This document shows positions 7,571 to 38,849 of a stretch of 64,000 nt of DNA, piece by piece (within the stretch, counting starts at the first letter, position 1; each line of letters begins with the position of its first letter). Under the pieces are notes generated by a model. That model worked only from the letters and a program-made list of their open reading frames with translations, was not told the origin of the DNA and made no database searches. Position numbers and translations under genes: made by a program. Origin of the DNA: Escherichia phage ECp13; sequence record PP274704.1. One strand, given 5' to 3'.

Positions 7571-9157
<1,587 letters not shown>

Positions 9158-9160
9158 GCT

Positions 9161-9214
9161 GTTTACAAGTCCCTCGTGTTGTGTTATAGTAGACTTACTG
9201 ACATAACATGAGGA
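9161..9214 (+). promoter_or_regulatory. early promoter plus 5' leader, copy A of the 54-nt repeat, upstream of alc
   Basis: GTTTAC, 18-nt spacer, TG-t-TATAGT, then a leader carrying GAGGA. Confidence 0.5.
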
Positions 9215-9221
9215 CTTTATG

Positions 9222-9725
9222 ATGGATTTGCAGCTTATTACTACTGAGATGGTCGTTGAAGCATACGGTGATACTACAGATGGGATTTCTGTATTTAAAG
9301 GAAATCGTCGAGTTGGATATATCACCGATCTTAAGAAAGATTTAGCTAAGCAAGTCAAGCGGAAAACGACCATTAAAGAATATCGAAATCGTCGTCTTGA
9401 GCAAGCCCGTGATATGCTTCCTGATGCGGTTGAGGAGATGAAAGTCTTTTTAGAAAATCAGCTTGCGAAATATGATTGTGATGTGTTCATTAATCAGACT
9501 CAACCTAATGTTCATATCAACAACTGCAAATGCTATATCATCGTTAATCCTTTAACGGGAAAACACCGTCTTGGAATTAGTAATCCAAATCGTAGCGCAT
9601 CGGATATGGCAGAAGATGTTGAGGCATGCTTTAAAATTTCTAAATCTCCTGCTGAACATCATATTTTAATTAACGGTCTTTCTCAAGACGATATTATAGA
9701 GGTTATTAAAACTTTATGCAATTAA
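9222..9725 (+). CDS. alc: Alc, inhibitor of transcription on cytosine-containing DNA
   Basis: 167 aa from the second ATG; sequence recognised as T4 Alc; follows rnlA as in T4. Confidence 0.8.
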   Translation: MDLQLITTEMVVEAYGDTTDGISVFKGNRRVGYITDLKKDLAKQVKRKTTIKEYRNRRLEQARDMLPDAVEEMKVFLENQLAKYDCDVFINQTQPNVHINNCKCYIIVNPLTGKHRLGISNPNRSASDMAEDVEACFKISKSPAEHHILINGLSQDDIIEVIKTLCN

Positions 9726-10069
9726 GTAATACGACAACAGGCTTGCTATTAATTGTAATTGCATTGGGCGGAACTTCTTTAATTTTAAAAAATAAAATTG
9801 AAAGATTAGAAACGTCTGTTGTAGAAATTACAAAAACGGCCAATGAAAACGCTTTAGCATTAAATAATTTGCGAATTCAGTATAATTATATTGATGCGAT
9901 GAATAATAAAAATCGTGAGGCAATTGCTGCTATTGAGCGTGAAAATGAAAAACTGCGCAAAGACGCAAAGAAGGCGGATGTGGTGGCTCATAAGCCAGGA
10001 TTGGTTGAAAAACAAATCAACAACTCCTTCAACAAGTTCGCAGAAGACATCCAGGACCTTTCTAAATGA
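9716..10069 (+). CDS. hypothetical membrane-anchored coiled-coil protein
   Basis: 117 aa; N-terminal hydrophobic helix (GLLLIVIALGG) followed by a charged helical region. Confidence 0.45.
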   Translation: MQLSNTTTGLLLIVIALGGTSLILKNKIERLETSVVEITKTANENALALNNLRIQYNYIDAMNNKNREAIAAIERENEKLRKDAKKADVVAHKPGLVEKQINNSFNKFAEDIQDLSK

Positions 10070-10365
10070 TTAAACTATCAGCAGTAATATTATCTATTGG
10101 TCTTCTAGTTGGTTGTTCGACAAAGCCTCTAGAAGTAAAGAAAGAAACAGTTCATCCTAATTGGCCAGTACAAATAAAGTCATACGATGAAGCTAAACTA
10201 TCTTGGCAAGTTAAAGTTATTGATGGTAAAGCTTGGGTCGGTATGCCATTCGAAGATTCCCAGGAATTTCGTATTTGGCTTAATGATGTAAAACGATATG
10301 TACATGATCAGAAAACTATGATATGTTATTATCGCCAAGAGTTAAAAGAGGATAAATGCAAATGA
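10066..10365 (+). CDS. putative lipoprotein
   Basis: 99 aa; signal peptide with lipobox LLVGC. Confidence 0.5.
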   Translation: MIKLSAVILSIGLLVGCSTKPLEVKKETVHPNWPVQIKSYDEAKLSWQVKVIDGKAWVGMPFEDSQEFRIWLNDVKRYVHDQKTMICYYRQELKEDKCK

Positions 10366-10586
10366 TTTCATGGCATCAATTTGAACATCTCAAAGGATTG
10401 ATTTATGAATCCGAGATGGCTGCAATGATTTATGGACGTCAGATTCAGCGGTTAGAATCTTTACCTCCAACTAATGATGTTTTATTAGCTCAATCACGTG
10501 CTAATCTTAAAAATGAATACCAAAATAAGTGGGGTAAAGCATCTAAAGACCTACATGATTATATTCAATCATTGGTTGAGAAATAA
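10356..10586 (+). CDS. hypothetical protein
   Basis: 76-aa ORF. Confidence 0.4.
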   Translation: MQMISWHQFEHLKGLIYESEMAAMIYGRQIQRLESLPPTNDVLLAQSRANLKNEYQNKWGKASKDLHDYIQSLVEK

Positions 10587-10589
10587 TAA

Positions 10590-11814
<1,225 letters not shown>

Positions 11815-11815
<1 letters not shown>

Positions 11816-12012
11816 TGGCTTTGCATCATGAAACTTGGGCTATTGTTATTGTAAATAGCGGTTTAGTTGGTACTAGTAATGGGCAATTTTGTGTTTTCAC
11901 TAGTGAAAACAGAGCTTGGGAGGAATGTCTTAAATTAAGGGAAAAGAATCCTGATGTTGAACTAACAGTAAAGAAAACTAAACTACCTTTACCATGGAAA
12001 ACTTATGAATAA
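11815..12012 (+). CDS. hypothetical small protein
   Basis: 65-aa ORF, translationally coupled. Confidence 0.35.
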
Positions 12013-12205
12013 CATAGAAAAGATTTATCGACTTTGTGATAAAATTGAAAAAGAAAAGAAATATCTATTTTGTTTATGGCCTATTGTTGATGGAAGAATA
12101 GACTTAGATATTCTTGATTATGAAACAGAAGACATAGTAGATGGTTCAACTTTTGATAATGCGTTGGATGTTATTAATTGGCTCGAAGAAAATTATGTGG
12201 GGTGA
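12005..12205 (+). CDS. hypothetical small protein
   Basis: 66-aa ORF. Confidence 0.35.
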   Translation: MNNIEKIYRLCDKIEKEKKYLFCLWPIVDGRIDLDILDYETEDIVDGSTFDNALDVINWLEENYVG

Positions 12206-12483
12206 ATATGTTTCCGACTTATTCTAAAATCGTAGAAGTAGTGTTTAGTCAAATTATCGCTAATAATATGTTTGAAAAGCTTGATAACGCAGCCGAGCTT
12301 CGAATTCATGCTCAAGTGACTCATGTATTGAACACTTTGCTTCCAGACCAGGTGGATTCTATTGCCATTACGCTGTATCCAGGTTCCGCGCATATCATTG
12401 TCGTATTTGGTCTTGATGCTGAGCTAGTCATCAAAGGCGATATTCGCTTTGAATCACAGACATCAGAATTCAAAGCAATTTAA
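12178..12483 (+). CDS. hypothetical protein (start uncertain, possibly ATG at 12208)
   Basis: 101-aa ORF. Confidence 0.35.
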   Translation: MARRKLCGVNMFPTYSKIVEVVFSQIIANNMFEKLDNAAELRIHAQVTHVLNTLLPDQVDSIAITLYPGSAHIIVVFGLDAELVIKGDIRFESQTSEFKAI

Positions 12484-12485
12484 TG

Positions 12486-12524
12486 GTTTACTTTATGGTA
12501 GAGTTGTGATATTATAGCTCTACC
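12486..12524 (+). promoter_or_regulatory. early promoter with stem-loop (PeSL-like)
   Basis: GTTTAC at 12486-12491, 18-nt spacer, TG-a-TATTAT at 12507-12515; arms GGTAGAG and CTCTACC. Confidence 0.55.
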
Positions 12525-12545
12525 AAAACAAATGAGGAAATTGAA

Positions 12546-13073
12546 ATGAGCGAATGGTTTGAAGAAGATAAGGTTTATCGTTTTAAAGCTGGATATAAAG
12601 ATATTTTTAATGAAACTTGTGGGGCCAATAAACGAATTGCTCAGTTTATTGGGGAAAATTCATTTAAAGTAAAAATAGATCCTGCGAAAAATGTTATTAG
12701 CATTAAACGCGAAATTGATGACCGCTGGTATAAAGCTGTTGATGTAATGGGCGAATCCTATAAAGTTAGCCCGTTATTTTCAATTGCTTATATGTTAGAA
12801 TATTCTTTTTTCGAAGAAGTTCAAAAAGATGATTCTGTCAGTAAATTTGAAATTAAAACTGATAAAGAAATTAAGTGGAAAGTAGTAGGTATTACTGGTT
12901 GCATGTTTTATATCTATGCTCAAACTGATACGAAGGAAGAAGCTAAAAAGAAAGCTCTAGAATATCTTGAAGAGTATAAAGAAGGCCCGGTAATGATTAC
13001 CCAAGATGCCGAATTAGTTTCTGTCAAATTAGTTAAAAACGTTGAAAGTAAGGAGCTGGGATCAACATGCTAA
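12546..13073 (+). CDS. hypothetical protein
   Basis: 175-aa ORF with GAGGAAA ribosome-binding site, downstream of an early-promoter stem-loop. Confidence 0.45.
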   Translation: MSEWFEEDKVYRFKAGYKDIFNETCGANKRIAQFIGENSFKVKIDPAKNVISIKREIDDRWYKAVDVMGESYKVSPLFSIAYMLEYSFFEEVQKDDSVSKFEIKTDKEIKWKVVGITGCMFYIYAQTDTKEEAKKKALEYLEEYKEGPVMITQDAELVSVKLVKNVESKELGSTC

Positions 13074-13303
13074 GTGAAAAACCAATTACTGTTAAAGAAT
13101 TCCAAGAAAAAGTTAAACTATTTGCTCAGGAATTGGTAAATAAAGTTTCTGAACGATTTCCAGAAACATCGGTTCGTGTTATTACCGAAACTCCTCGTTC
13201 GGTATTAGTAATTGTGAATCCAGGTGATGGTGATCAAATAACACATCTCAAATTGGATTTTGATGGATTAGTTGAAGCACAAAGGGTGTATGGCGTACTA
13301 TGA
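13067..13303 (+). CDS. hypothetical protein
   Basis: 78-aa ORF. Confidence 0.4.
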   Translation: MLSEKPITVKEFQEKVKLFAQELVNKVSERFPETSVRVITETPRSVLVIVNPGDGDQITHLKLDFDGLVEAQRVYGVL

Positions 13304-13638
13304 TGAATTTAACTGATATAATTGATAATTGTCTTGAAAATGATACTGGCGATCATAGAGCGCTTGATTCTGAAACAGCACAGTTCATTAGAATAACTTT
13401 AATGAATGATACTCTAGTGAATAGTATTCATCCTTCTGTGTATGATGCTATTATTGTGACGAAGTATCCAGTTGAGCTTCACAAAAAGATGGTTGGCGCA
13501 ATTTTTATTGATAAGAAAAACCGCTTTAAAGACGGGCAGAATATAATTAGTTCTGCTATTAAAAGTATAACTAAACTTCGTCACGAAATTTATCGTGTTG
13601 AAACTGCTAAATCTGCTTATCTGGTGATTATGAAATGA
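13300..13638 (+). CDS. hypothetical protein
   Basis: 112-aa ORF. Confidence 0.4.
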   Translation: MMNLTDIIDNCLENDTGDHRALDSETAQFIRITLMNDTLVNSIHPSVYDAIIVTKYPVELHKKMVGAIFIDKKNRFKDGQNIISSAIKSITKLRHEIYRVETAKSAYLVIMK

Positions 13639-14216
13639 AAGCGAGTACAGTACTTCAAATTGCATATTTAGTATCACAAGAATCAAAATGTTGCTCCTGG
13701 AAAGTAGGAGCAGTAATTGAAAAGAATGGACGTATTATTTCTACCGGATATAATGGTTCACCTGCCGGGGGTGTGAACTGTTGTGATTATGCTGCTGAGC
13801 AAGGTTGGTTGCTGAATAAGCCTAAACATACTATCATTCAAGGTCATAAACCTGAATGTGTATCATTTGGTTCAACTGATCGTTTTGTCTTGGCGAAAGA
13901 ACATCGTAGTGCTCACTCTGAATGGTCGTCTAAAAATGAAATTCATGCTGAACTAAATGCGATTTTGTTTGCTGCACGAAACGGTTCTTCAATTGAAGGT
14001 GCTACTATGTATGTAACACTTTCTCCTTGCCCAGATTGTGCAAAAGCGATAGCTCAATCTGGTATTAAAAAGCTGGTTTATTGCGAAACATACGATAAAA
14101 ATAAACCTGGCTGGGATGATATTCTGCGAAATGCAGGTATTGAAGTGTTTAATGTTCCTAAGAAAAACTTGAATAAGTTAAACTGGGAAAATATCAACGA
14201 ATTCTGTGGTGAATAA
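13635..14216 (+). CDS. cd: dCMP deaminase
   Basis: 193 aa; cytidine/dCMP deaminase zinc motifs HAELNA and SPCPDCA. Confidence 0.9.
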   Translation: MKASTVLQIAYLVSQESKCCSWKVGAVIEKNGRIISTGYNGSPAGGVNCCDYAAEQGWLLNKPKHTIIQGHKPECVSFGSTDRFVLAKEHRSAHSEWSSKNEIHAELNAILFAARNGSSIEGATMYVTLSPCPDCAKAIAQSGIKKLVYCETYDKNKPGWDDILRNAGIEVFNVPKKNLNKLNWENINEFCGE

Positions 14217-14452
14217 TGAAATTTCGTTTGGTACAGCTCACAGCAATTAGTTCTTATTCTACCGAGAACATTTCATTTGCTGTAGAGTATAAGAAATATT
14301 TTTTCTCTAGGTGGAAACAGTATTATAAATCAAATTGGGTTTGTATTGATAGACCGCATAGTTGGAAATCTGATTTAGAAAAATATCAAAAATTACTTTC
14401 CACTCTTAAAGAACGTGGAACAATTTATCATAAAACTGTAATAGGTAAATAA
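14216..14452 (+). CDS. hypothetical protein
   Basis: 78-aa ORF. Confidence 0.4.
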   Translation: MKFRLVQLTAISSYSTENISFAVEYKKYFFSRWKQYYKSNWVCIDRPHSWKSDLEKYQKLLSTLKERGTIYHKTVIGK

Positions 14453-14761
14453 ATGAAACTTACAACTGAACAAAAAGTAGCAATTCGTGAAATTTTGAAA
14501 ACTAAATTGTCCATGGGGGTTTCAAACGTAGTTTTTGAAAAGTCTGATGGTACTATTCGTACTATGAAAGGTACTCGTGATGCCGATTTTATGCCAACCA
14601 TGCAAACTGGTAAATTGACTGAATCTGCCCGGAAAGAATCTACTGATATGATTCCAGTATTTGATGTTGAGCTTGGCGAGTGGCGAGGTTTTTCTATTAA
14701 CAAATTGATTTCCGTTAATGGTATGAAAGTTGAGCATTTGCTTCAATTTATTGGTAAATAA
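14453..14761 (+). CDS. hypothetical protein
   Basis: 102-aa ORF. Confidence 0.4.
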   Translation: MKLTTEQKVAIREILKTKLSMGVSNVVFEKSDGTIRTMKGTRDADFMPTMQTGKLTESARKESTDMIPVFDVELGEWRGFSINKLISVNGMKVEHLLQFIGK

Positions 14762-14787
14762 ATGCTTTAAGAATTATTTGTTATTAT
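14761..14787 (+). promoter_or_regulatory. MotA-dependent middle promoter for gene 31
   Basis: MotA-box-like AATGCTTTA at 14761-14769 and TATTAT about 20 nt downstream. Confidence 0.45.
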
Positions 14788-14817
14788 TAATTCATCTGTT
14801 AACAAAAAGGAAAAACG

Positions 14818-15153
14818 ATGTCTGAAGTACAACAGCTACCAATTCGTGCTGTAGGTGAATATGTGATTTTAGTTTCTGAACCTGCACAAGCCGGTGATGA
14901 AGAAGTTACAGAATCAGGACTTATTATCGGTAAACGTGTTCAAGGTGAAGTTCCTGAACTGTGTGTAGTTCACTCTGTTGGTCCTGATGTTCCTGAAGGT
15001 TTCTGTGAAGTTGGTGATTTGACTTCTCTTCCAGTTGGTCAAATTCGAAACGTTCCACATCCTTTTGTAGCTCTGGGTCTTAAGCAGCCAAAAGAAATTA
15101 AACAAAAATTCGTTACCTGTCACTATAAAGCTATTCCGTGTCTTTATAAGTGA
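14818..15153 (+). CDS. 31: co-chaperonin (GroES analogue) for capsid protein folding
   Basis: 111 aa; sequence recognised as gp31; middle-promoter motif upstream. Confidence 0.9.
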
Positions 15154-15161
15154 TATAAATA
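15154..15161 (+). promoter_or_regulatory. late promoter TATAAATA between gene 31 and rIII
   Basis: Exact TATAAATA in an intergenic position. Confidence 0.4.
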
Positions 15162-15300
15162 ATAATATGAATTGGGTGTCGGAATAATAAGTTAACCGAA
15201 CAATTCTACGTGGTAGTCTACAACTGAGAGATCTGTCGAAAGAAGATGAAATTCAGAAGAACGTGACTACCGAGTTTTAATCTCTAACGAGAATTTTTAA

Positions 15301-15549
15301 ATGATTAAACAATTACAACACGCTCTTGAACTGCAACGAAACGCATGGAATAATGGTCACGAAAACTATGGCGCATCTATTGATGTTGAAGCCGAAGCTC
15401 TTGAAATCCTGCGTTATTTCAAACATCTGAATCCTGCTCAAACTGCATTAGCTGCTGAGCTTCAGGAAAAAGATGAACTTAAATATGCTAAGCCTCTGGC
15501 TTCTGCTGCGCGAAAAGCAGTTCGTCACTTTGTGGTAACACTGAAGTAA
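15301..15549 (+). CDS. rIII: rIII lysis-inhibition accessory protein
   Basis: 82 aa; sequence recognised as rIII; position between 31 and 30. Confidence 0.8.
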   Translation: MIKQLQHALELQRNAWNNGHENYGASIDVEAEALEILRYFKHLNPAQTALAAELQEKDELKYAKPLASAARKAVRHFVVTLK

Positions 15550-15668
15550 GTATGTTGACGAGGTTTATGGTTATCCTGTCGGTAAATATTCAAAACCTAT
15601 GTTCCCCTTGAGGGCTTGCGCAGGCAATGCCAATAAGTCCTGCATTTTCATTTAAAAGAGAATTTATA

Positions 15669-15845
15669 ATGGCAAAACAAGCTAAAGCAAAGAAAGCAGT
15701 TGAAAAGAAAGTTGGTGATTCTAAACGCGCTGGCTACAAGCGTGGGTCGAACTCTCGTATCAATCAAACTGTTGAGAAGATCATGCGCCGAGCACGTGCG
15801 GTTCTTCGAGATGATGCTTCTCGTTTTGGTAAGCAGAAAGCATAA
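15669..15845 (+). CDS. hypothetical small basic protein
   Basis: 58 aa from ATG 15669 (the track ORF begins at 15627); Lys/Arg-rich; terminator immediately downstream. Confidence 0.4.
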   Translation: MAKQAKAKKAVEKKVGDSKRAGYKRGSNSRINQTVEKIMRRARAVLRDDASRFGKQKA

Positions 15846-15850
15846 GTTGA

Positions 15851-15879
15851 GGACTCCTTCGGGAGTCCTTTTTTATTTT
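15851..15879 (+). terminator. rho-independent terminator
   Basis: GGACTCC-TTCG-GGAGTCC hairpin followed by TTTTTTATTTT. Confidence 0.75.
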
Positions 15880-15897
15880 CCAAAGATTGCACAAAGT

Positions 15898-15941
15898 TGT
15901 TTACAGTATAGTTCCTTTGTGATAGTATTATCTTACACAAA
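15898..15941 (+). promoter_or_regulatory. early promoter with flanking inverted repeat
   Basis: GTTTAC at 15898-15903, 18-nt spacer, TG-a-TAGTAT at 15919-15927; TTTGTG and CACAAA arms. Confidence 0.45.
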
Positions 15942-15955
15942 CAAAGGAGAATAAA

Positions 15956-16288
15956 ATGAAAACGATTAATCTGAACGCTACAGTTAAAACTAAATGCTTC
16001 AATGGTAAATATGATGAAACTATGTGGTTCTTAATGGCAGTTGAAGGTGATATTATTGAAGTAGAAACAACAGAAGGTATGGGAACAGATTTCACCTTTA
16101 CAATTCAAGTTCATAATTTCTTTACTGGTTGGATTTATGAATTGAATACAGTAATCGTTGGAAAAATTGAACAAAATGAATTGGGTGAATGGTATTATGT
16201 TACAGCTCGCCAACGTGCCGAACGCTTAATTGAGAAGATGAAAAAAGTTGGTAAACTTGACATGCAGCACTGGAAAGTAGTAAAATAA
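15956..16288 (+). CDS. hypothetical protein
   Basis: 110-aa ORF with AAGGAG ribosome-binding site and an early promoter upstream. Confidence 0.45.
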   Translation: MKTINLNATVKTKCFNGKYDETMWFLMAVEGDIIEVETTEGMGTDFTFTIQVHNFFTGWIYELNTVIVGKIEQNELGEWYYVTARQRAERLIEKMKKVGKLDMQHWKVVK

Positions 16289-16290
16289 TT

Positions 16291-16328
16291 GTTTACTTTG
16301 GTACAGGATATGATATTATATACCTGTA
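16291..16328 (+). promoter_or_regulatory. early promoter with stem-loop (PeSL-like)
   Basis: GTTTAC at 16291-16296, 17-nt spacer, TG-a-TATTAT at 16311-16319; arms GGTACAGG and CCTGTACC. Confidence 0.55.
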
Positions 16329-16343
16329 CCGCAATTAAACATC

Positions 16344-16721
16344 TTGGAGAATAAAATGAACTACATCAACTTTGAACGTAAATATGTTTCTAATGGTATT
16401 GCAGGTTCTATTGATACTATTTGCCTTTGGAAACATCAAAATGGATCAGTATGCGAAATTGAACAGTATATGACTCCTAACTACGTTTATATGCGATTTG
16501 AAAATGGCATCACGGTTTCAATCACAATGGAAGGTTCCAACTTCAAAATCGCTTTGGATGATGATTTTCGTCAACGCGATTTAGGGACTCATCCTTGCTG
16601 GAATGGCGTTAATCGCAAGCTTCTGGTTAAAACTTGGATTCGTCATATTCTAAGTAACAGAGCTAAACCTGAGCATCTTGAAGCAATCTTTGATGTAGTT
16701 CTTAACGAATTTGATATTTAA
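16344..16721 (+). CDS. hypothetical protein
   Basis: 125-aa ORF with GGAG ribosome-binding site and an early-promoter stem-loop upstream. Confidence 0.45.
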   Translation: MENKMNYINFERKYVSNGIAGSIDTICLWKHQNGSVCEIEQYMTPNYVYMRFENGITVSITMEGSNFKIALDDDFRQRDLGTHPCWNGVNRKLLVKTWIRHILSNRAKPEHLEAIFDVVLNEFDI

Positions 16722-16731
16722 AATAAAATGA

Positions 16732-16745
16732 GGGGCTTCGGCCCC
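16732..16745 (+). other. stable UUCG-tetraloop hairpin
   Basis: GGGGC-TTCG-GCCCC with no clean T-tract downstream. Confidence 0.4.
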
Positions 16746-16762
16746 TTACTGAGGAAAATACT

Positions 16763-17050
16763 ATGTTTATGACTACTTATTTTGACACCCGCAAAAATTT
16801 CTGTGAAGTAGTTTTCTCAAAGGCGCCTAAAGACCTTCCTGCTCATTTGCAACCTACCAGCGAATCGATTAAAAACTACGTTAATGTAGTATGTCCTTTA
16901 GAGTTCCGTACTGTAAATGGCCGCGATACTTTAGCTATCACTAAACTCAATCGTGAAATTGACATTGACCCTTCAATTGCGCGCGAAATTAACATTTCTG
17001 ATATTGGCGGCGGTAATGTTAAATCACACGGTTTTCAGATGAGATTTTAA
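16763..17050 (+). CDS. hypothetical protein
   Basis: 95-aa ORF. Confidence 0.4.
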   Translation: MFMTTYFDTRKNFCEVVFSKAPKDLPAHLQPTSESIKNYVNVVCPLEFRTVNGRDTLAITKLNREIDIDPSIAREINISDIGGGNVKSHGFQMRF

Positions 17051-17054
17051 TAAA

Positions 17055-17270
17055 ATGTTTAAGAAATTAATCCAGAAATTACTTGGCACGGAAATGGTCG
17101 AAGTTACTTATCGCGTGACTGATGTCTCTCCGCTCACTGAAGACCATTTAGAGCCGTATATTATGACAATTAAAATGCTTAAATATGATGGCGGATTATC
17201 TATTGAAGACCGTTTACCGGGTTACGGTCATTGGGCTGATGTTGAAATTATAAGTATTAAAGATGTCTGA
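17055..17270 (+). CDS. hypothetical protein
   Basis: 71-aa ORF. Confidence 0.4.
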   Translation: MFKKLIQKLLGTEMVEVTYRVTDVSPLTEDHLEPYIMTIKMLKYDGGLSIEDRLPGYGHWADVEIISIKDV

Positions 17271-17721
17271 GTTAGAGATAAGAAGCAATTTTAGATGGCC
17301 ATCATGCGCATTAAGTAATTTCGCCCAATGGCCTTTCGTCATGGATGGTATCCAATTTGGAGGTCTCGAAGGATTCCTCCAAGGATGTAAGGTGAAAAAT
17401 GTTGAACAGCAAAGACGTATATTTGGGTTATCCGGGCTTGTCGCTCAACAAGCTGGAAGGTCTTATGCTAGAGCTCAGGACCGTGGGACCCTCTTCTGGC
17501 TTGGAGTTCCGTTTTCAAGATACTCCTCAGCGTGGAAAGAATTATACACAAATGCATATTTTGAAGCAGCGTTCCAAAACAAGGGCTTTCGCGATGCATT
17601 ACAAGCCTCGAAAGGAAAAGTTTTGAAGCATAGCATGGCTAGCGGTCTAACAAAAGATGATACAATACTAACCGAAGCTGAATTTATTGATGTGTTAAAC
17701 CTATTAAGAGACTCTCTATGA
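17263..17721 (+). CDS. NADAR / YbiA-like (DUF1768) domain protein
   Basis: 152 aa; CALSNFAQWPF and GLEGFLQ motifs resemble NADAR-family proteins. Confidence 0.5.
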   Translation: MSELEIRSNFRWPSCALSNFAQWPFVMDGIQFGGLEGFLQGCKVKNVEQQRRIFGLSGLVAQQAGRSYARAQDRGTLFWLGVPFSRYSSAWKELYTNAYFEAAFQNKGFRDALQASKGKVLKHSMASGLTKDDTILTEAEFIDVLNLLRDSL

Positions 17722-18560
17722 AGCCTACTATTTTAACTGATATTGATGGAGTATGTTTAAGCTGGCAATCAGGTCTTCCTTATTTTGCTCAGAAATATAA
17801 TCTTCCGTTAGAACATATTTTAAAAATGATCCAAGATGAGAAATTTATTTCTCCAGGTAAACTCTTTAATTGTGATGAAGAACTTGGTGTCAAGTTAATT
17901 GAAAAATATAATCGTTCAGATTTTATTCGTTACTTGTCTCCATATAAAGATGCTCTATGCGTAATTAACAAACTAAAAGAAGATTATAATTTTGTGGCTG
18001 TTACGGCATTGGGTGATTCTATTGACGCTCTGCTGAATCGTCAATTTAATTTGAATGCTCTTTTTCCTGGTGCCTTCTCAGAAGTAATGATGTGTGGTCA
18101 TGATTCTTCAAAAGAAGAGTTATTCAAAAAGGCAAAAGAGAAATATAACGTAATTTGTTATATTGACGATCTCGCTCACCATTGCGATCATGCGAGTGAA
18201 ATATTAAATGTTCCTGTTTATTGGATGGCTCGAGGAGAGCGTGACAATATTCCAAAAACTGCTCAGCGAGTTTATACATGGAATGATGTAGAAAATAAGC
18301 TTTTTTCACCAAAGGAAAATAAAGAAAGTTTTGATAGTGAAAAAGCTATAAAAGATGTGATTGAGAAGATGATTAAAAACGATTCTTTTCCTTGGAACAC
18401 TACCTGGAGAACTCCTGGATTAAATCCATATCATCCATATTATACACACCCATATCAAACACATCCGTTTCAGACATGGAACTACATTAAACCTGGTGGC
18501 ATAGAGTATTTGTATAATAGACCTACTAGCGGTGATAATATTTTCCAAGGAGCATTCTAA
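17718..18560 (+). CDS. HAD-superfamily hydrolase-like protein with a His/Pro/Tyr-rich C-terminal tail
   Basis: 280 aa; N-terminal ILTDIDGV matches HAD motif I; C-terminal NPYHPYYTHPYQTHPFQTW. Confidence 0.4.
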   Translation: MKPTILTDIDGVCLSWQSGLPYFAQKYNLPLEHILKMIQDEKFISPGKLFNCDEELGVKLIEKYNRSDFIRYLSPYKDALCVINKLKEDYNFVAVTALGDSIDALLNRQFNLNALFPGAFSEVMMCGHDSSKEELFKKAKEKYNVICYIDDLAHHCDHASEILNVPVYWMARGERDNIPKTAQRVYTWNDVENKLFSPKENKESFDSEKAIKDVIEKMIKNDSFPWNTTWRTPGLNPYHPYYTHPYQTHPFQTWNYIKPGGIEYLYNRPTSGDNIFQGAF

Positions 18561-18829
18561 TGTTTGTCGTTCACACTATTTATGAAAATGAAGGTAATAC
18601 TACACGTGATTATGGTCACGTAAATCAATTTTTTAGATGCAATCCAGAATTCCGAGCTCAAAAAGACGAACGAATTTTTAAAAAATGTGTAGAGCAAGGT
18701 TTCATTTACGTCAAGCACTGGATGCAAGGAAATAAAGTTAGAACTACATATCACAGGTCTTTGCCTGAGCTTAATGATGAATTGATTTATAATAGAAATG
18801 TAAATCAAACTCTGAAGGATGAACAATGA
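18560..18829 (+). CDS. hypothetical protein
   Basis: 89-aa ORF directly upstream of the ligase gene. Confidence 0.4.
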   Translation: MFVVHTIYENEGNTTRDYGHVNQFFRCNPEFRAQKDERIFKKCVEQGFIYVKHWMQGNKVRTTYHRSLPELNDELIYNRNVNQTLKDEQ

Positions 18830-20286
18830 TTCTTAAAATTCTGAATGAAATAGCATCTATTGGATCAACTAAGCAGAAGCAAGCAATTCTTGAAAAGAAT
18901 AAAGATAACGAATTGCTTAAACGAGTATATCGTCTGACTTATTCTCGTGGGTTACAGTATTATATCAAGAAATGGCCTAAGCCTGGTATTGCTACCCAGA
19001 GTTTTGGAATGCTGACTATTACCGATATGCTTGACTTCATTGAATTCACGTTAGCTACTCGGAAATTGACTGGAAATGCGGCAATTGAGGAATTAACTGG
19101 ATATATCACTGATGGTAAAAAGGATGATGTTGAAGTTTTGCGTCGAGTTATGATGCGAGACCTTGAATGCGGTGCTTCAGTATCTATTGCAAACAAAGTT
19201 TGGCCAGGTTTAATTCCTGAACAACCTCAAATGCTGGCAAGTTCTTATGATGAAAAAGGCATTAGTAAGAATATCAAATTTCCAGCTTTTGCACAGTTAA
19301 AAGCAGATGGAGCTCGGTGTTTTGCTGAAGTCCGAGGCGATGAATTAGATGATGTTCGTCTTTTATCACGAGCTGGTAATGAATATCTAGGATTAGATCT
19401 TCTTAAAGAAGAGTTAATCAAAATGACTGCCGAAGCCCGCCAGATTCATCCAGAAGGTGTGTTAATCGATGGCGAATTGGTATACCATGAGCAAGTTGAA
19501 AAGGAGCCAGAAGGCCTAGATTTTCTTTTTGATACTCCTGAAAATAGTAAAGTTAAAGAGTTTGCCGAAGTAGCTGAATCACGTACTGCTTCTAATGGAA
19601 TCGCCAATAAATCTTTAAAGGGAACTATTTCAGAAAAAGAAGCCAAATGCATGAAGTTTCAGGTCTGGGATTATGTCCCGTTGGTAGAAATATACGGTCT
19701 TCCAGCGTTTCGTTTAAAATATGATGTACGTTTTTCTAAACTAGAACAAATGACATCAGGATATGATAAAGTAATTTTAATTGAAAACCAGGTAGTAAAT
19801 AACCTAGATGAAGCTAAGGTAATTTATAAAAAGTATATTGACCAAGGTCTTGAAGGTATTATTCTCAAAAATACCGATGGATTATGGGAAAATGCTCGTT
19901 CAAAAAATCTTTATAAATTTAAAGAAGTAATTGATGTTGATTTAAAAATTGTAGGAATTTATCCTCACCGTAAAGACCCTACTAAAGCGGGTGGATTTAT
20001 TCTTGAATCAGAGTGTGGAAAAATTAAAGTAAATGCTGGTTCAGGCTTAAAAGATAAAGCCGGTGTAAAATCGCATGAACTTGACCGTACTCGCATCATG
20101 GAAAACCAAAATTATTATATTGGAAAAATTCTAGAGTGCGAATGTAACGGTTGGTTAAAATCTGATGGCCGCACTGATTACGTTAAATTATTTCTTCCGA
20201 TTGCGATTCGTTTACGTGAAGATAAAACTAAAGCTAATACATTCGAGGATGTATTTGGTGATTTTCATGAGGTAACTGGTCTATGA
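18826..20286 (+). CDS. 30: ATP-dependent DNA ligase
   Basis: 486 aa; adenylation motif LKADGARC; sequence recognised as T4-type ligase. Confidence 0.95.
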   Translation: MILKILNEIASIGSTKQKQAILEKNKDNELLKRVYRLTYSRGLQYYIKKWPKPGIATQSFGMLTITDMLDFIEFTLATRKLTGNAAIEELTGYITDGKKDDVEVLRRVMMRDLECGASVSIANKVWPGLIPEQPQMLASSYDEKGISKNIKFPAFAQLKADGARCFAEVRGDELDDVRLLSRAGNEYLGLDLLKEELIKMTAEARQIHPEGVLIDGELVYHEQVEKEPEGLDFLFDTPENSKVKEFAEVAESRTASNGIANKSLKGTISEKEAKCMKFQVWDYVPLVEIYGLPAFRLKYDVRFSKLEQMTSGYDKVILIENQVVNNLDEAKVIYKKYIDQGLEGIILKNTDGLWENARSKNLYKFKEVIDVDLKIVGIYPHRKDPTKAGGFILESECGKIKVNAGSGLKDKAGVKSHELDRTRIMENQNYYIGKILECECNGWLKSDGRTDYVKLFLPIAIRLREDKTKANTFEDVFGDFHEVTGL

Positions 20287-20471
20287 AAGCTTACTTAGAA
20301 ACAATTGTCGTTGCTCAAAAAGAAGGCGGAGATGTTTCTACTTCTGTATCACAAATTATGATTGAATTTATAGATGCATATGCTTATAATAAATTCACAG
20401 AAACATTTGATGCCTATGAAAAAGGTCCAAAGTTTGAAATATATCGTACTCTCTTACCAATAGATTATTAA
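20283..20471 (+). CDS. hypothetical small protein
   Basis: 62-aa ORF coupled to the ligase stop; terminator hairpin follows. Confidence 0.4.
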   Translation: MKAYLETIVVAQKEGGDVSTSVSQIMIEFIDAYAYNKFTETFDAYEKGPKFEIYRTLLPIDY

Positions 20472-20492
20472 AGGCCTTCGGGCCTTTAATTT
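20471..20492 (+). terminator. rho-independent terminator between the gene 30 operon and alt
   Basis: AAGGCC-TTCG-GGCCTT hairpin plus a T-rich tail. Confidence 0.6.
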
Positions 20493-20500
20493 TATAAATA
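20493..20500 (+). promoter_or_regulatory. late promoter TATAAATA for alt
   Basis: Exact TATAAATA 24 nt upstream of the alt ATG, just after a terminator hairpin. Confidence 0.6.
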
Positions 20501-20523
20501 GAATAAACACTAGAGAGGATATG

Positions 20524-22617
20524 ATGGAACTCATTACAGAATTATTTGACGAAGATACTACTCTTCCGATTACAAACTTAAATCCAAAGAAGAAAATACC
20601 ACAAATTTTTTCAGTTCATGTTGATGACGCAATTGAACAGCCAGGCTTTCGTTTATGTACCTATACATCTGGAGGTGATACTAATCGCGATTTAAAGATG
20701 GGCGATAAAATGATGCATATTGTTCCTTTTACATTAACTGCTAAAGGCTCAATTGCTAAATTAAAAGGTCTCGGTCCAAGCCCAATTAATTACATCAATT
20801 CAGTTTTTACTGTTGCAATGCAGACGATGCGTCAGTATAAAATTGATGCCTGTATGCTCCGTATTCTTAAGTCTAAAACTGCTGGTCAAGCTCGACAAAT
20901 TCAACTTATTGCTGATAGACTTATTCGCAGCCGTTCAGGAGGCAGATACGTCCTTCTTAAGGAACTCTGGGATTACGATAAAAAGTACGCATATATTCTT
21001 ATACATCGCAAAAATGTATCACTAGAAGACATTCCAGGAGTTCCGGAAATTAGTACCGAGCTCTTTACTAAAGTTGAATCGAAGGTCGGCGATGTTTATA
21101 TCAATAAAGATACTGGAGCTCAAGTAACTAAAAATGAGGCAATTGCAGCATCTATTGCGCAAGAAAACGATAAACGCTCTGACCAAGCTGTAATAGTTAA
21201 AGTTAAAATTTCCCGTAGAGCAATTGCACAAAGTCAGTCATTGGAATCTTCTAGATTTGAAAGTGAATTATTCCAAAAGTATGAATCTACTGCAGCTAAT
21301 TTCAATAAACCTGCTACCGCTCCTTTAATTCCCGAAGCGGAAGAAATGAAACTTGGAATTAATTCAATAGCTTCTAAAACTAAGGCAGCAAAAATCATTG
21401 CCGAAGGAACTGCAGATGAACTTCATTATGACTATAAATTCTTTTCAAAAAGTGAGGTTAATGAAGTTTCTGAAAAGATTAAAGATGTAATTCTTAATGC
21501 GATTAAAAATGAACCAACTACTTCAATAAAATGTTTAGAGAAATACGCAGCAGCCGTTAATCAATTCTTTGAAGAATATAAAGATAATTGGCTTGATAAA
21601 CATAATAAAACTCGTAAAGGGCAGCCAGATGAAGTCTGGGAAGAAATAACTAAAAATTCCTGGAACGCAGCAAAAACTAAATTCCTCAAACGAATGATTT
21701 ATAGTTTTTCTGGAATTGGTGCAGGTCCAATGATTGATATTACTATTGCCCGTGATGGTTCTAAATATACTCCATCACAAAAGCGCGGCATTAGAGAGTA
21801 TTGTGGTTCAGGATATACTGACATCAATAATCTTCTTTTAGGACGCTACAATCCAGAACGATATGATGTAATGAGTGAAAAAGAAATTGAATCTGCTATA
21901 AATAACTTAGATTCAGCTTTTGAAAATGGTGACCGTATACCAGAAGGCATTACAGTTTATCGTGCTCAAAGTATGACTGCTCCTATATACGAAGCACTAG
22001 TTAAAAATAAAGTGTTCTATTTCAGAAATTTTGTATCTACTTCTTTAACTCCTATCATTTTTGGACGTTTTGGAATTACGCATGCTGGTATTGGTCTTTT
22101 AGAACCAGAAGCTCGTAATGAATTGACAGTTGATAAAAATGAAGAAGGAATAACTATTAATCCAAACGAAATAAGAGCGTATAAAGAAAATCCTGAATAC
22201 GTTAAAGTTCAAATAGGATGGGCAATTGATGGAGCTCATAAAGTTAATGTTGTATATCCAGGAAGTCTCGGAATAGCAACAGAAGCTGAAGTTATTCTAC
22301 CACGCGGATTGATGGTCAAAGTTAATAAAATAACTGATGCTTCTAATAATGACGGAACAACATCTAATAATACAAAACTTATTCAAGCTGAAGTTATGAC
22401 TACGGAAGAACTCACCGAATCAGTAATTTATGACGGTGACCGTCTAATGGAAACTGGTGAAGTAATTGCAATGACAGGTGATATTGAAATAGAAGACAGA
22501 GTTGACTTTGCATCATTTGTTTCATCAAATGTTAAACAAAAAGTAGAATCATCTCTTGGAATTATTGCGTCTTGCATAGATATTACAAACATGCCTTACA
22601 AGTTCGTTCAAGGATAA
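20524..22617 (+). CDS. alt: ADP-ribosyltransferase Alt (capsid-packaged), copy 1
   Basis: 697 aa; N-terminal MELITELFD region; R-S-E triad (VYRAQ, FVSTSL, EAEVILPRG); late promoter TATAAATA just upstream. Confidence 0.85.
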   Translation: MELITELFDEDTTLPITNLNPKKKIPQIFSVHVDDAIEQPGFRLCTYTSGGDTNRDLKMGDKMMHIVPFTLTAKGSIAKLKGLGPSPINYINSVFTVAMQTMRQYKIDACMLRILKSKTAGQARQIQLIADRLIRSRSGGRYVLLKELWDYDKKYAYILIHRKNVSLEDIPGVPEISTELFTKVESKVGDVYINKDTGAQVTKNEAIAASIAQENDKRSDQAVIVKVKISRRAIAQSQSLESSRFESELFQKYESTAANFNKPATAPLIPEAEEMKLGINSIASKTKAAKIIAEGTADELHYDYKFFSKSEVNEVSEKIKDVILNAIKNEPTTSIKCLEKYAAAVNQFFEEYKDNWLDKHNKTRKGQPDEVWEEITKNSWNAAKTKFLKRMIYSFSGIGAGPMIDITIARDGSKYTPSQKRGIREYCGSGYTDINNLLLGRYNPERYDVMSEKEIESAINNLDSAFENGDRIPEGITVYRAQSMTAPIYEALVKNKVFYFRNFVSTSLTPIIFGRFGITHAGIGLLEPEARNELTVDKNEEGITINPNEIRAYKENPEYVKVQIGWAIDGAHKVNVVYPGSLGIATEAEVILPRGLMVKVNKITDASNNDGTTSNNTKLIQAEVMTTEELTESVIYDGDRLMETGEVIAMTGDIEIEDRVDFASFVSSNVKQKVESSLGIIASCIDITNMPYKFVQG

Positions 22618-22620
22618 ATC

Positions 22621-24678
22621 ATGGAACTTATTACAGAATTATTTGACGGCGCTTCGGCGCCGGTTGTTAACTTAAATCCTAAGCACAAAATACCTCAAAT
22701 TTTTGCTATTCAAGCCGGCGAAGAAAGCGTGCTTCCTGGATTTAGATTTTGTACATACACCTCTGGCGGTGATACAAATAAAAACGTTAAGCCAGGCGAT
22801 AAAATGATGCATATCGTAATGATAGGTGTTAATGAGAAACTATCATTAGTTAAACTTAAAAACTTGGGTGGAAATCCAATTGGTGTCATTAATGCCGTTT
22901 TTGATACTGCTCTTCAAACAATGAAACAGTATAAAATTGACGCATGCCTATTCCGCGTACTAAAAAGTAAAACAAATGGCGCAGCTCGTCAAATGCAAGT
23001 TATTGCTGACCGTTTAGTACGTACTAAAGGAGCAGGTCGATATGTTCTTTTAAAGGAAATCTGGGATTACGATAAAAAGTATGCATATATTATGGTTTAC
23101 CGTAAAAATGCCAATTTAGAAGACATTCCAGGTGTACCTCCTATTTCAACTGAGTTATTCACAAAAGTTGAATCAAAGGTTGGTGATGTTTATGTAGATG
23201 TTAAAACAGGTAATGCTGTTCCTAAAGCTGTTGCTGTTGCTGCTTCTATTGCTTTAGAAAATGATAAGCGCACGGATCAAGCCGTTATTCAGAAAACTAA
23301 AATTAGTCGTCGATTAGCAGCACAAGCTCAATATTCTACTGTAGATGCTTCGCTTCAGGGTGATAGCTTCGCTGCCAAGAAATATCAAGAGTTTGAATCT
23401 AAAGTTCCGGTATATAAAGCAGAAGGACCAATGAACTCTGGTGTTATTCAGATTGGTTCAAACTTCAGCAAAGGAGCTATCGGTGGTATGAGAAGTGCTT
23501 CTCGTTTTAAATCTAGCGATTATGAACTAGAAAGCTTCCGAAATCATATTGCATTGGCCCATGCACGTTTACGTGATCCGTCTATCAGACTGCAGAGCGA
23601 TATAACACATCAAGGTTCTCAAGAATATTTAAAGAATAAAGAATTTTTTGATTATAAAACCGATAAAATTTTGAGCGATCTCGCTGACATTAATATTTCT
23701 AATAGCTTTGATGTTATTAAGAAAATTATCAATGATTTAGTTAAAGGTTCTAAAGCTACGCCAGACGAAAAGGTAGCTATTATTCAATTTGTCATGAATG
23801 GCATTTATAAATTGATTAATGAATCTGCTGCTCAGGCATATGAATACGCAAGCACCGAAGTAACTCCAAAAGGATTAACTCAGGCTGAGTCTGATGTAAT
23901 TGAAGATTATTGCGCAGATTCATATGTTGAAATGAACTCGTTCCTTTTAGGTAAACCGGATTCTACCCGTGAAGAATACATGGAACGAGCTATTAAACAC
24001 ATCGAGACGCTGGATTCTGCATTCGCCAAAGGATCAGTTCTTCCTCCGGGAACTACGCTTTATCGTGGTCAAGAAGTTACTTTTAAAACTTTACGTCATA
24101 ATATTGAAAATAAAATGTTCTATTTCAAGAACTTCGTATCAACATCGCTTAAACCAAATATCTTCGGTGAGCATGGTAAAAACTATATGGCTCTAGATGA
24201 TTCCGGTGCAGTATTTTCTGGTGAAGGAGAAGGTTCTGTTGATGCTGAAGATTTAATGCATATGGGTAGTCACTCTTCTTATGCGAATGAAGATGCTGAA
24301 ACTAGCGTAGGTATGGTAATAAAAGGAGCTGAGCGAATTAAAGTTATCGTTCCAGGTCATTTATCAGGATTTCCATCAGAAGCTGAAGTTATTTTACCGC
24401 GTGGAATTTTGCTGAAGATTAATAAAGTGAGTACATACATGATGAAAGAAACTGCTTATAACAAGTATCTAATCGAAGGCACAATCGTTCCTCCTTCTGA
24501 ACAATTAGAAGAATCGGTATATGATGGCGATCATCTAATGGAAACTGGTGAAGTTCGTCCAATGGCTGGGTTTAATCAATTCCTTGTAGAAGAATCAAAA
24601 GAAGAGGAAAACGAAGTTTCTCAAATCTTGGCTTCTTTGGTTAACATCAACGGAATGTCTAAAAAGTTCAAGATGTAG
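22621..24678 (+). CDS. ADP-ribosyltransferase, Alt paralog, copy 2
   Basis: 685 aa; N-terminal ~230 aa closely similar to copy 1; R-S-E triad retained (LYRGQ, FVSTSL, EAEVILPRG); an insert sits between the STS and E-x-E motifs. Confidence 0.8.
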   Translation: MELITELFDGASAPVVNLNPKHKIPQIFAIQAGEESVLPGFRFCTYTSGGDTNKNVKPGDKMMHIVMIGVNEKLSLVKLKNLGGNPIGVINAVFDTALQTMKQYKIDACLFRVLKSKTNGAARQMQVIADRLVRTKGAGRYVLLKEIWDYDKKYAYIMVYRKNANLEDIPGVPPISTELFTKVESKVGDVYVDVKTGNAVPKAVAVAASIALENDKRTDQAVIQKTKISRRLAAQAQYSTVDASLQGDSFAAKKYQEFESKVPVYKAEGPMNSGVIQIGSNFSKGAIGGMRSASRFKSSDYELESFRNHIALAHARLRDPSIRLQSDITHQGSQEYLKNKEFFDYKTDKILSDLADINISNSFDVIKKIINDLVKGSKATPDEKVAIIQFVMNGIYKLINESAAQAYEYASTEVTPKGLTQAESDVIEDYCADSYVEMNSFLLGKPDSTREEYMERAIKHIETLDSAFAKGSVLPPGTTLYRGQEVTFKTLRHNIENKMFYFKNFVSTSLKPNIFGEHGKNYMALDDSGAVFSGEGEGSVDAEDLMHMGSHSSYANEDAETSVGMVIKGAERIKVIVPGHLSGFPSEAEVILPRGILLKINKVSTYMMKETAYNKYLIEGTIVPPSEQLEESVYDGDHLMETGEVRPMAGFNQFLVEESKEEENEVSQILASLVNINGMSKKFKM

Positions 24679-24731
24679 TTTACAAGTCCCTCGTGTTGTG
24701 TTATAGTAGTCTTACTGACATAACATGAGGA
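24678..24731 (+). promoter_or_regulatory. early promoter plus 5' leader, copy B of the 54-nt repeat
   Basis: 53 of 54 nt identical to 9161-9214. Confidence 0.5.
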
Positions 24732-24738
24732 ACACAAA

Positions 24739-25029
24739 ATGAAATCTTCTTTACGCTTTTTAGGTCAAGAACTTGTAGTTGAAGGCGTTATTCCTGCTGA
24801 TAACGCTTTTAATGAAGCAGTTTATGATGAATTTATCAAAATTTTTGGAACAGATAAAAAGTTCGGAATTTTTCCTTCTGAAAATTTTTCAAAGCCAGAA
24901 CAGACTGAAAGCATTTTCCAGGGTGTAGTAACAGGTAAATTTGAGTCAGAAGCTCCGGTAAAAATTGAAGTTTATATTGAAGACAGTTTAGTTGCTTCAG
25001 TTGCTGCTTTCATTTCATTCCGTAAATAA
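24739..25029 (+). CDS. hypothetical protein
   Basis: 96-aa ORF behind a copy of the 54-nt promoter-leader repeat; terminator follows. Confidence 0.45.
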   Translation: MKSSLRFLGQELVVEGVIPADNAFNEAVYDEFIKIFGTDKKFGIFPSENFSKPEQTESIFQGVVTGKFESEAPVKIEVYIEDSLVASVAAFISFRK

Positions 25030-25034
25030 AAATA

Positions 25035-25054
25035 TGGGGACCTTTCGGTCCCCA
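25035..25054. terminator. bidirectional terminator between the convergent alt-region and gene 54 transcripts
   Basis: TGGGGACC-TTTC-GGTCCCCA hairpin between two convergent stop codons. Confidence 0.65.
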
Positions 25055-25057
25055 TTG

Positions 25058-38843: not shown

Positions 38844-38849
38844 ATAAAA

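Follow-up and report, generated by a model that had tools for sequence, protein, structure and literature searches.

A two-copy early-promoter cassette at alc and alt.-3 of Tequatrovirus phages, with a predicted hairpin that pairs the promoter spacer with the ribosome-binding site

In phage T4, the genes e, soc, 49 and I-TevI have a Shine-Dalgarno sequence (SD) that is buried in a helix on long transcripts, and shorter RNAs made from an internal promoter are translated (Uzan & Miller 2010, PMC3014915, section 29). T4-type phages also carry intergenic promoter-early stem-loop (PeSL) cassettes (Arbiol et al. 2010, PMC2839356; Comeau et al. 2014, PMC4122927). These combine a strong, sigma-70-like early promoter with a stem-loop that lies either across the -10 box or between it and the -35 box, and their 3' end carries an SD and a start codon. 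T4 early (Pe) promoters have a GTTTAC -35 element, a TGn extended -10, a near-consensus -10 box, and MotA-independent immediate early activity (Hinton 2010, PMC2988021). Here, we describe a 54-bp element that occurs twice in a 64-kb window (the whole stretch of DNA analysed) from the genome of Escherichia phage ECp13 (PP274704.1), a Tequatrovirus (T4-like) phage, once upstream of alc and once upstream of alt.-3. All coordinates are those of this window, and its + strand is the early-gene direction. We consider it reasonably probable that a compact sigma-70 early-promoter/leader cassette drives these two unrelated genes, that an SD-hiding hairpin within it gates translation by promoter, that the cassette at alt.-3 is derived from alc, and that the two loci have undergone conversion since.

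The cassette reads GTTTACAAGTCCCTCGTGTTGTGTTATAGTAG[A/T]CTTACTGACATAACATGAGGA and was found at 9161-9214 (copy 1) and 24678-24731 (copy 2), both on the + strand. As the initial annotation had reported, with the sequence correctly quoted, the two copies were identical at 53 of 54 positions; the sole difference was at position 33, which is A in copy 1 and T in copy 2. A search of the window with up to 3 mismatches allowed returned two sites, both of them cassette copies, where 0 were expected from 100 dinucleotide-preserving shuffles. A repeat search of the window listed the pair as a two-copy family (D6) with a spacing of 15,517 bp. Both intergenic gaps are filled by the repeat, and the sequences flanking the two copies are unrelated. 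Copy 1, in the rnlA-alc gap, starts 3 nt past the stop codon of rnlA, and its end is 4-7 nt away from the ATGs of alc (9219 and 9222). Copy 2 lies in the gap between the second alt gene and alt.-3; it starts at the G of the TAG stop codon of the former, and its end is 7 nt away from the ATG of the latter (24739). The gene alc (9222-9725, +; Pfam PF17527) encodes the inhibitor of host transcription; 9222 is the T4-equivalent ATG and the ATG at 9219 is in frame. The gene alt.-3 (24739-25029, +) encodes 96 amino acids (aa) with the domain DUF5498, which has no assigned function.

Each copy consists of a -35 hexamer TTTACA, a 17-nt spacer, a TG-extended -10 hexamer TATAGT, and the SD GAGGA. The -35 hexamers are located at 9162-9167 (inside GTTTAC, the T4 early-promoter form) and 24679-24684, and the TGn element with the -10 hexamer is located at 9182-9190 (TGTTATAGT) and 24699-24707, all on the + strand. 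The features of a T4-type early sigma-70 promoter, GTTTAC(A), a spacing of 17 ± 1 bp, TGn, and TAnnnT, were thus present at 9162-9190 and 24679-24707. Transcription is predicted to start at about 9197 and 24714, respectively. The UP-element region (about -40 to -60) is coding DNA; at alc an A/T-rich run ends 21 nt 5' of the -35 box, and alt.-3 has only CTAAAAAGTT. No promoter features are annotated at either site in the T4 records NC_000866 and AF158101. The other early promoters of the window (at 498, 12486, 15899 and 16291) have in common with the cassette only GTTTAC and TGTGATAnTAT, with aligned identities of 32-41/54 compared with 53/54 for the pair. Ordinary Pe promoters likewise share the consensus positions alone (32-46/54 aligned), whereas the cassette pair has the whole spacer and leader in common. 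Because the other early promoters resemble it only at consensus motifs, the cassette is a specific copy rather than a generic consensus. The proposal in the initial annotation that a regulatory unit of promoter, leader and ribosome-binding site (RBS) had been copied therefore stands.

The cassette RNA is predicted to fold as one long imperfect hairpin. In this fold one arm is the promoter spacer, which includes the anti-SD CCCUC, the other is the leader with the SD, and the -10 hexamer and the predicted start site are at the apex. This pairing had been overlooked in the initial annotation, although the promoter, leader and RBS described there are all present. The 5' arm of copy 1 (promoter spacer) lies at 9167-9185, with the anti-SD CCCTC at 9171-9175, and its 3' arm (leader) at 9200-9217, with the SD GAGGA at 9210-9214. 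In copy 2 the arms lie at 24686-24702 and 24717-24733, respectively, with the SD GAGGA at 24727-24731; all four arms are given on the + strand. In cassette numbering, the 5' arm extends from position 7/9 to 25, with CCCUC at 11-15, and the 3' arm from position 40 to 56/57. The minimum free energy (MFE) was -24.4 kcal/mol (z -4.64) for the alc copy and -23.0 kcal/mol (z -4.42) for the alt.-3 copy, and 0 of 200 shuffles were as stable in either case. A diverged natural variant of the cassette had an MFE of -19.0 and a z of -4.1. Leader-only RNAs with a 5' end near the predicted start were unstructured (z near 0). Opening the SD through the AUG was calculated to cost 13.2-13.3 kcal/mol for read-through RNA versus 3.2-4.4 for RNA starting at positions 35-39. 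The Tequatrovirus sense strand folded more stably than the antisense strand (-24.4 vs -15.4), and the stem contains three G.U pairs, which points to a structure at the RNA level in this genus. A scan of the whole window against Rfam 15 gave no match at the gathering score.

The rnlA-alc gaps of two Dhakavirus phages and of Gelderlandvirus, Karamvirus, Jiaodavirus and Bragavirus were compared with that of Tequatrovirus, giving six genera. In every genus an early promoter was found at the same place in the gap, and the hairpins of the other genera had energies of -17 to -22 kcal/mol. In all six the spacer pairs with the leader, the stem takes in 4/4 SD nucleotides, the loop contains the -10 box, and the predicted start (7 nt past the -10 box, position 37) lies no further downstream than the base with which the 3' arm begins. 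The arms differ among genera outside the SD core, with the pairs GTTTAGTT/AACTAAAC, ATTTG/CAAAT, GTCAG/CTGAT, TCATTTTT/GAAAATGA, and GTGTTGTG/CATAACAT, and compensatory differences were present in 15 of the 19 left-arm columns. The mean energy of the arm duplex was -19.7 kcal/mol for cognate arms versus -9.3 for non-cognate arms. The best partner was the cognate arm in five of six cases; the exception was the 5' arm of Dhakavirus, which paired best with the 3' arm of Tequatrovirus, its closest relative. We regard this covariation between genera as the strongest evidence that a functional hairpin belongs to alc. Judged from these alignments, alc was ancestrally regulated by the hairpin-promoter, which six genera have kept with compensatory changes.

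Within Tequatrovirus, both copies were read directly in 14 genomes, together with several single copies (24+ Tequatrovirus copies). An exact scan of IMG/VR with the first 29 nt gave 6 loci, too few for a population analysis, and the annotated phage collection was used instead. Cassette positions 1-15, 17-26 and 45-54 were invariant. Positions 27, 29, 32, 33, 34 and 40 varied, with rare changes at 16, 42 and 44. All four stem changes retain a standard pair: G16A (G.U to A-U), T44C (G.U to G-C), C42T (G-C to G.U), and G40A (U.G to U-A). The apex, positions 27-34 (9187-9194 and 24704-24711), is hypervariable, with 5 of 8 positions varying compared with 5-10% in the flanking 150 nt. The apex variants include TATAGT, TATAAT and TACAGT as well as discriminator changes, and this hypervariability may reflect the tuning of promoter strength. 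Quasi-palindrome "correction" was considered as a source of the multi-site apex variants and was dropped, as the apex was not made more palindromic.

Read-through RNA from rnlA or from the late-transcribed alt genes would contain both arms, and its RBS would be locked, with about 13 kcal/mol needed to open it. RNA from the cassette's own promoter would not contain the 5' arm, and its RBS would be open at 3-4 kcal/mol. We infer that, most likely, the hairpin hides the SD on read-through transcripts and leaves own-promoter transcripts translatable, so that Alc and Alt.-3 would be made only from their own early transcripts. For alt.-3, a T4 late-promoter motif TATAAATA was found just 5' of alt (20493-20500, +), a motif that the depositors of phage SA20RB also annotated, and the window scan gave no + strand terminator between this promoter and 25034. 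This places alt.-3 inside the late transcription unit of alt, and read-through transcripts into alt.-3 are plausible from the arrangement. After alt.-3 and gp54 a bidirectional terminator-like hairpin was found at 25034-25055.

By prediction, the cassette has the features of an RBS-sequestering element, with the SD in a stable helix and own transcripts that, from the inferred start, do not include the 5' strand. It resembles e, soc, 49 and I-TevI in having the SD in a helix on the long RNA and the promoter in the 5' strand, with a predicted gap in opening energy of about 9-10 kcal/mol. The order in time differs: in the known cases early RNA is silent and a late (or middle) internal promoter supplies the translated RNA, whereas the cassette has an early internal promoter, and the RNA that would be silent is the later or longer read-through. 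Neither alc nor alt.-3 is on the published list of such genes, and their case is known by prediction. The architecture of a PeSL is also present, and the T4/PST PeSL consensus TTTACW-N17-TAYWAT fits the cassette. PeSL copies at different loci recombine as well, with exchange points between the -10 box and the SD or ATG. However, PeSLs occur as many loosely similar copies in hyperplastic regions, where they mediate insertions, deletions and mini-circles, and their stem-loop has been read as a terminator. The cassette occurs as exactly two near-identical copies 15.5 kb apart that flank essential genes and appear to exchange by conversion only; no insertion, deletion or gene replacement is associated with it; its SD is in the stem; and the stem is kept by covariation at one gene, alc, across genera. 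On the folding predictions, it is a mobile regulatory cassette of the PeSL class that adds a new RBS-sequestering hairpin with an internal promoter, and not a new kind of system. A full-text literature search found no paper mentioning the alc/alt.-3 pair. As far as checked, the covariation-supported hairpin of alc, the apparent origin of the alt.-3 copy as a transplanted alc cassette, and the evidence for continuing conversion are new.

Published T4 data were consistent with an early promoter at both sites. According to the time-resolved omics data of Wolfram-Schauerte et al. 2022, RNA and protein are both early for alc and alt.-3; alt.-1 and alt.-2 had middle RNA, alt had middle RNA and late protein, and rnlA had early RNA and late protein. 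Patterson-West et al. 2018 tabulated RNA-seq reads per nt at 5 min post infection for wild type and motA-amber. In wild type, rnlA, alc, alt.-2 and alt.-3 had 21.2, 12.9, 9.6 and 15.6 reads per nt, respectively; in motA-amber, they had 16.1, 23.7, 17.4 and 43.7, respectively. The motA-amber/wild-type ratios were 0.68, 1.61 and 2.38 for rnlA, alc and alt.-3, respectively, and in the motA-amber infection reads stepped up at both junctions, from rnlA to alc and from alt.-2 to alt.-3. These steps and ratios indicate that a MotA-independent promoter, behaving like other Pe promoters, lies within both junctions. The shared timing anticipated for the two genes holds in T4, where both have early RNA and protein and both go up in motA-amber as Pe-driven genes do.

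Several points weigh against promoter gating by the hairpin. The poor translation of read-through RNA is a prediction, and the start sites were placed solely by distance, 7 nt past the -10 box. The arms of different genera were aligned by our simple register, the distance from the -35 box. Alignment across genera with MAFFT and RNAalifold misaligned the 3' arms (7 pairs recovered, 5 with compensatory changes), and it was replaced by the folds of single sequences and the comparison of cognate and non-cognate arm duplexes. Counting of pairs within Tequatrovirus, at shallow depth, gave no double-sided covariation, and the structural support comes from the other genera. In 4 of 6 genera the sense and antisense strands fold about equally well, so that a DNA-level or antisense reading is possible there. 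The RNA of rnlA is also early, which makes the benefit of blocking read-through translation less evident at alc. In wild-type T4 at 5 min, alc had fewer reads per nt than rnlA; it follows that a large part of the upstream RNA ends or is degraded at the junction, and a role of the hairpin in attenuation or in forming a 3' end would fit this at least equally well. Finally, the distance from the upstream stop codons to the -35 box is 0-5 nt, and a ribosome that terminates there could open the stem at its base and so couple translation instead of blocking it.

Doubtful but possible is the reading of the hairpin as a PeSL-type attenuator, which would mainly stop or trim upstream transcripts, by attenuation or as a stable 3' end, with the SD pairing incidental to a stable stem in a tight gap. 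Arbiol et al. 2010 described T4-type stem-loops that are located in the promoter spacer or overlap the -10 box, one of which cuts lacZ read-through like a strong terminator, and the fall in reads from rnlA to alc in T4 occurs despite the promoter between them. The depositors of SA20RB also annotated a "rho-independent terminator" (WebGeSTer) over 50 nt 5' of alt.-3 (L019 1002-1051, -), which is the cassette hairpin. However, our terminator scan made no call at either copy, and no U-tract follows either hairpin (tails CUUUAUGAUGG and ACACAAAAUG). The G+C-rich stem with a U run that marks an intrinsic (rho-independent) terminator was thus found at neither copy, and the SA20RB annotation is probably mistaken. 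An attenuator alone would not require 4/4 SD nucleotides in the stem across six genera while other stem sequence changes. Furthermore, the promoters at 498, 12486 and 16291 form hairpins at the -10 box without the SD, indicating that the SD is not needed for such a stem. Gating and attenuation may coexist.

Translational coupling, in which the SD is freed only when a ribosome completing the upstream gene opens the stem at its base, so that alc and alt.-3 are co-translated with rnlA and alt, is unlikely. The upstream stop codon is as close as stated above at alc in six genera, and at alt.-3 it includes cassette position 1; given how large a ribosome footprint is known to be, a terminating ribosome would reach the anti-SD at positions 11-15. 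Such tight spacing is nevertheless usual throughout these compact genomes, and in T4 the Alt.-3 protein is early and the Alt protein late, the opposite of what coupling would lead one to expect. In the window rnlA is frameshifted, and its translation would end about 430 nt upstream, yet the cassette is still intact.

The pair is not peculiar to this genome. About 500 phage records match both cassette regions of the window at 90-99% identity, and T4 carries the pair with 0 mismatches at alc and 1 at alt.-3. Megablast with the 54-mer gave 628 places in 411 records. The more sensitive blastn with window 8900-9500 matched about 499 Tequatrovirus records, essentially each of them at two places, and 34 records from other genera at one place; the total of 1031 places in 533 records fits two per Tequatrovirus genome. 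No record had more than two copies, the gene order between the copies was unchanged in 14 of 14 genomes, and no rearrangement junction was found. The flanking genes and their order were conserved in the 14 Tequatrovirus genomes and in the three genera examined over the whole interval, and the cassette alone was replaced. The initial annotation had called the cassette recently copied; this did not hold, since the presence of the pair at both loci in T4 and about 498 Tequatrovirus records means that the copying predates the Tequatrovirus radiation.

The native alt.-3 promoters of Mosigvirus, Gaprivervirus, Dhakavirus, Karamvirus and Marfavirus form a separate family with a small CAC(C)AAGGAAGTG hairpin in the spacer. 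In these five genera no significant overall structure was predicted (z -0.8 to +1.2), and the spacer is not paired to the SD. The nearest outgroup sequence of the Tequatrovirus element was the Dhakavirus alc promoter. With an alc hairpin that spans six genera, native alt.-3 promoters that have no such hairpin, and this nearest outgroup, alc is indicated as the donor. Immediately 3' of GAGGA, the Tequatrovirus alt.-3 locus (AACACAAAATG) is still like the Gaprivervirus alt.-3 locus (AAACAAAATG). Most likely, the ancestor of Tequatrovirus had its native alt.-3 promoter overwritten by the alc cassette. GTTTACA and (A)TGAGGA, motifs common to all early promoters, mark the limits of the replaced tract. 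Because only 6-7 bp of common motif flanked the original replacement, it was probably an illegitimate or template-switch event, and homologous conversion would have been possible only later, with 54 bp of identity.

In Mosigvirus, the alc promoter (L011 14601-14662, -; L010 983-1041) was found without the alc-type hairpin. Its four nearest neighbours were all of the alt.-3 type, and the leader TATCAACAACAYGAGGA is common to it and the Mosigvirus alt.-3 copy. An older cassette swap in the opposite direction, from alt.-3 to alc, is therefore probable but not established for this genus by these comparisons. A specially similar alc/alt.-3 pair in Mosigvirus was sought in a 54-nt identity matrix and rejected (42/54, against a background of up to 46). 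In Gaprivervirus VR20, a partial alc duplicate of 77 aa lies between rnlA and alc (L012 14710-15030, -). The promoter of this duplicate has a terminator-like hairpin GGGGTGTACAAGCCCC that encloses the -35 box, and a second hairpin with the anti-SD GGUUCC just past the -10 box, so that the predicted start is again inside the 5' arm.

Variants of the cassette were shared between the two loci. Among 12 distinct haplotypes, 5 were found at both loci in different genomes. There were 7 derived mutations at alc and 8 at alt.-3, and 5 of these were the same change at the same site (G16A, G29A, G32A, T33A and C34T), with a hypergeometric P of 1e-6 to 8e-4 depending on the model of possible mutations. 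The mean distance between paralogues was 2.29 within a genome and 2.27 between genomes, and the orthologue distances were 1.98 and 2.35. In the 14 genomes no site of the cassette was diagnostic for a locus. Since derived variants and haplotypes are common to both loci, conversion appears to be ongoing, and the simplest reading of these patterns is that non-crossover gene conversion between the sites has occurred repeatedly, alongside the ordinary recombination of phages with one another. If direct repeats at a distance of 15.5 kb crossed over, the stretch from alc to alt, with the essential genes 30 and 31 in it, would be deleted or duplicated; the lack of any rearranged genome is consistent with this. 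The suggestion in the initial annotation that the repeat is a substrate for ectopic recombination was thus borne out for the passage of variants between loci and not for rearrangements, as gene order was constant. The situation is similar to the concerted evolution of short dispersed repeats by ectopic gene conversion, in that the paralogues draw on one variant pool; it differs in the tract of about 54 bp and in a virus where an inter-copy crossover would be lethal.

Parallel selection on a demanding promoter and leader, with no exchange, would keep the copies identical and give the same variants at both loci. Selection on the -10 box and discriminator could partly explain the common variants, which counts against conversion: G29A gives the consensus TATAAT, G32A, T33A and C34T alter the discriminator, tuning of promoter strength is plausible, and the apex is hypervariable. 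As a full account we find it highly unlikely, because so many derived mutations hit the same site with the same base even under restrictive models, multi-site haplotypes recur at both loci, and spacer and leader differ freely between genera, so that this exact sequence is not dictated by selection. Equally improbable is a recent duplication in this genome that serves chiefly as a substrate for ectopic crossovers or rearrangements, which would suit the near-identity, the unrelated flanks and a length of 54 bp, close to the minimum homology for T4 recombination that Singer et al. in 1982 are said to have reported, but not the occurrence of both copies in T4 and throughout Tequatrovirus, the unchanged order in 14 genomes, or the loss or doubling of genes 30 and 31 that a crossover would bring.

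Other early promoters of the window also form hairpins. Those at 498-560, 12486-12550 and 16291-16360 have significant hairpins (z -2.5 to -4.9) with the -10 box in the loop and the SD unpaired. Their arms are GGGTAGTA/TATTACCC, GGTAGAG/CTCTACC, and GGTACAGG/CCTGTACC, respectively. In the orthologues from Mosigvirus, Gaprivervirus and Dhakavirus the arms are preserved at least for the 12486 and 16291 types of promoter. In the early promoter of the 30.8 homologue (15899-15960), the spacer UUCCUUUGUG pairs with the leader and SD CACAAACAAAGGAG (MFE -15.4, z -3.7); by this predicted fold, it is a third gene with a promoter-embedded anti-SD. The cassette itself contains a mini-open reading frame of 4 or 5 codons that starts from the ATG at positions 48-50 (9208-9222 and 24725-24742). 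Its TGA overlaps the start codon of the real gene (ATGA) at both loci, even though the sequence after the cassette and the length differ. This frame was spotted post hoc, its ATG lies directly 5' of the SD, and it has no SD of its own; it was set aside as probably a by-product.

Compared with the T4 annotation, the gene order is nrdB, denA, rnlA, copy 1, alc, pseT.3-pseT, cd, 31, rIII, 30.x, 30 (ligase), alt.1, alt, a second full-length alt paralogue, copy 2 and alt.-3, followed by gp54 on the opposite strand. The gene 5' of copy 1, rnlA (RNA ligase 1), lies at 8034-9157 (+). It has a 1-nt deletion relative to T4 (a C missing near 8671), and the N-terminal part of the resulting frameshifted gene stops at 8729; this is either a real pseudogene or a sequencing error. 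The genes 5' of copy 2 are alt (20521-22617) and the second alt paralogue (22621-24678), together 20521-24678 on the + strand. These tandem paralogues of 698 and 685 aa account for the repeat families D2, D5, D7, D8 and D16, with a spacing of about 2.1 kb. In T4 and Salmonella phage pSe_SNUABM_01 the second alt survives only as the remnants alt.-1 and alt.-2, and the T4 deletion ends about 20 nt short of the cassette, which is not its endpoint. Elsewhere in the window, two tandem 288-nt units that are 77% identical lie at 36106-36681 (family D1). A terminator-like hairpin GGGACCTTTCGGTCCC with a similar A/T-rich lead-in was found at 25006-25052 and 38820-38866, 13.8 kb apart (family D10, 70% over 47 nt).

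A wider claim can be put forward as a tentative possibility. T4-like early promoters would commonly embed a 5' arm that hides the downstream RBS, so that translation is gated by promoter, and such cassettes would move as units; those of alc and alt.-3 would have been swapped at least twice in opposite directions, from alc to alt.-3 in Tequatrovirus and from alt.-3 to alc in Mosigvirus, and would still be converting in Tequatrovirus. If this is true, promoter-gate hairpins would help, in cis, to bring about the shut-off of early protein synthesis, for which there is still no explanation. The cassette of alc and alt.-3 itself would extend the principle known from e, soc, 49 and I-TevI from late to early promoters. 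It offers a concrete, testable mechanism in cis by which a phage could limit the synthesis of Alc, which acts in host takeover, and of Alt.-3 to the transcripts of one promoter, and this restriction would hold though both genes directly follow genes that are transcribed at other times. Genome annotators should not label the cassette hairpin a terminator, and those who engineer T4-type phages near alc or alt should expect ectopic conversion over 54 bp. For the T4-like phages themselves, a regulatory cassette appears to have replaced another promoter precisely between the -35 box and the SD, and the copies then evolved in concert across hundreds of genomes, which would be direct population-level evidence for the idea of a mobile regulatory cassette in T4 itself.

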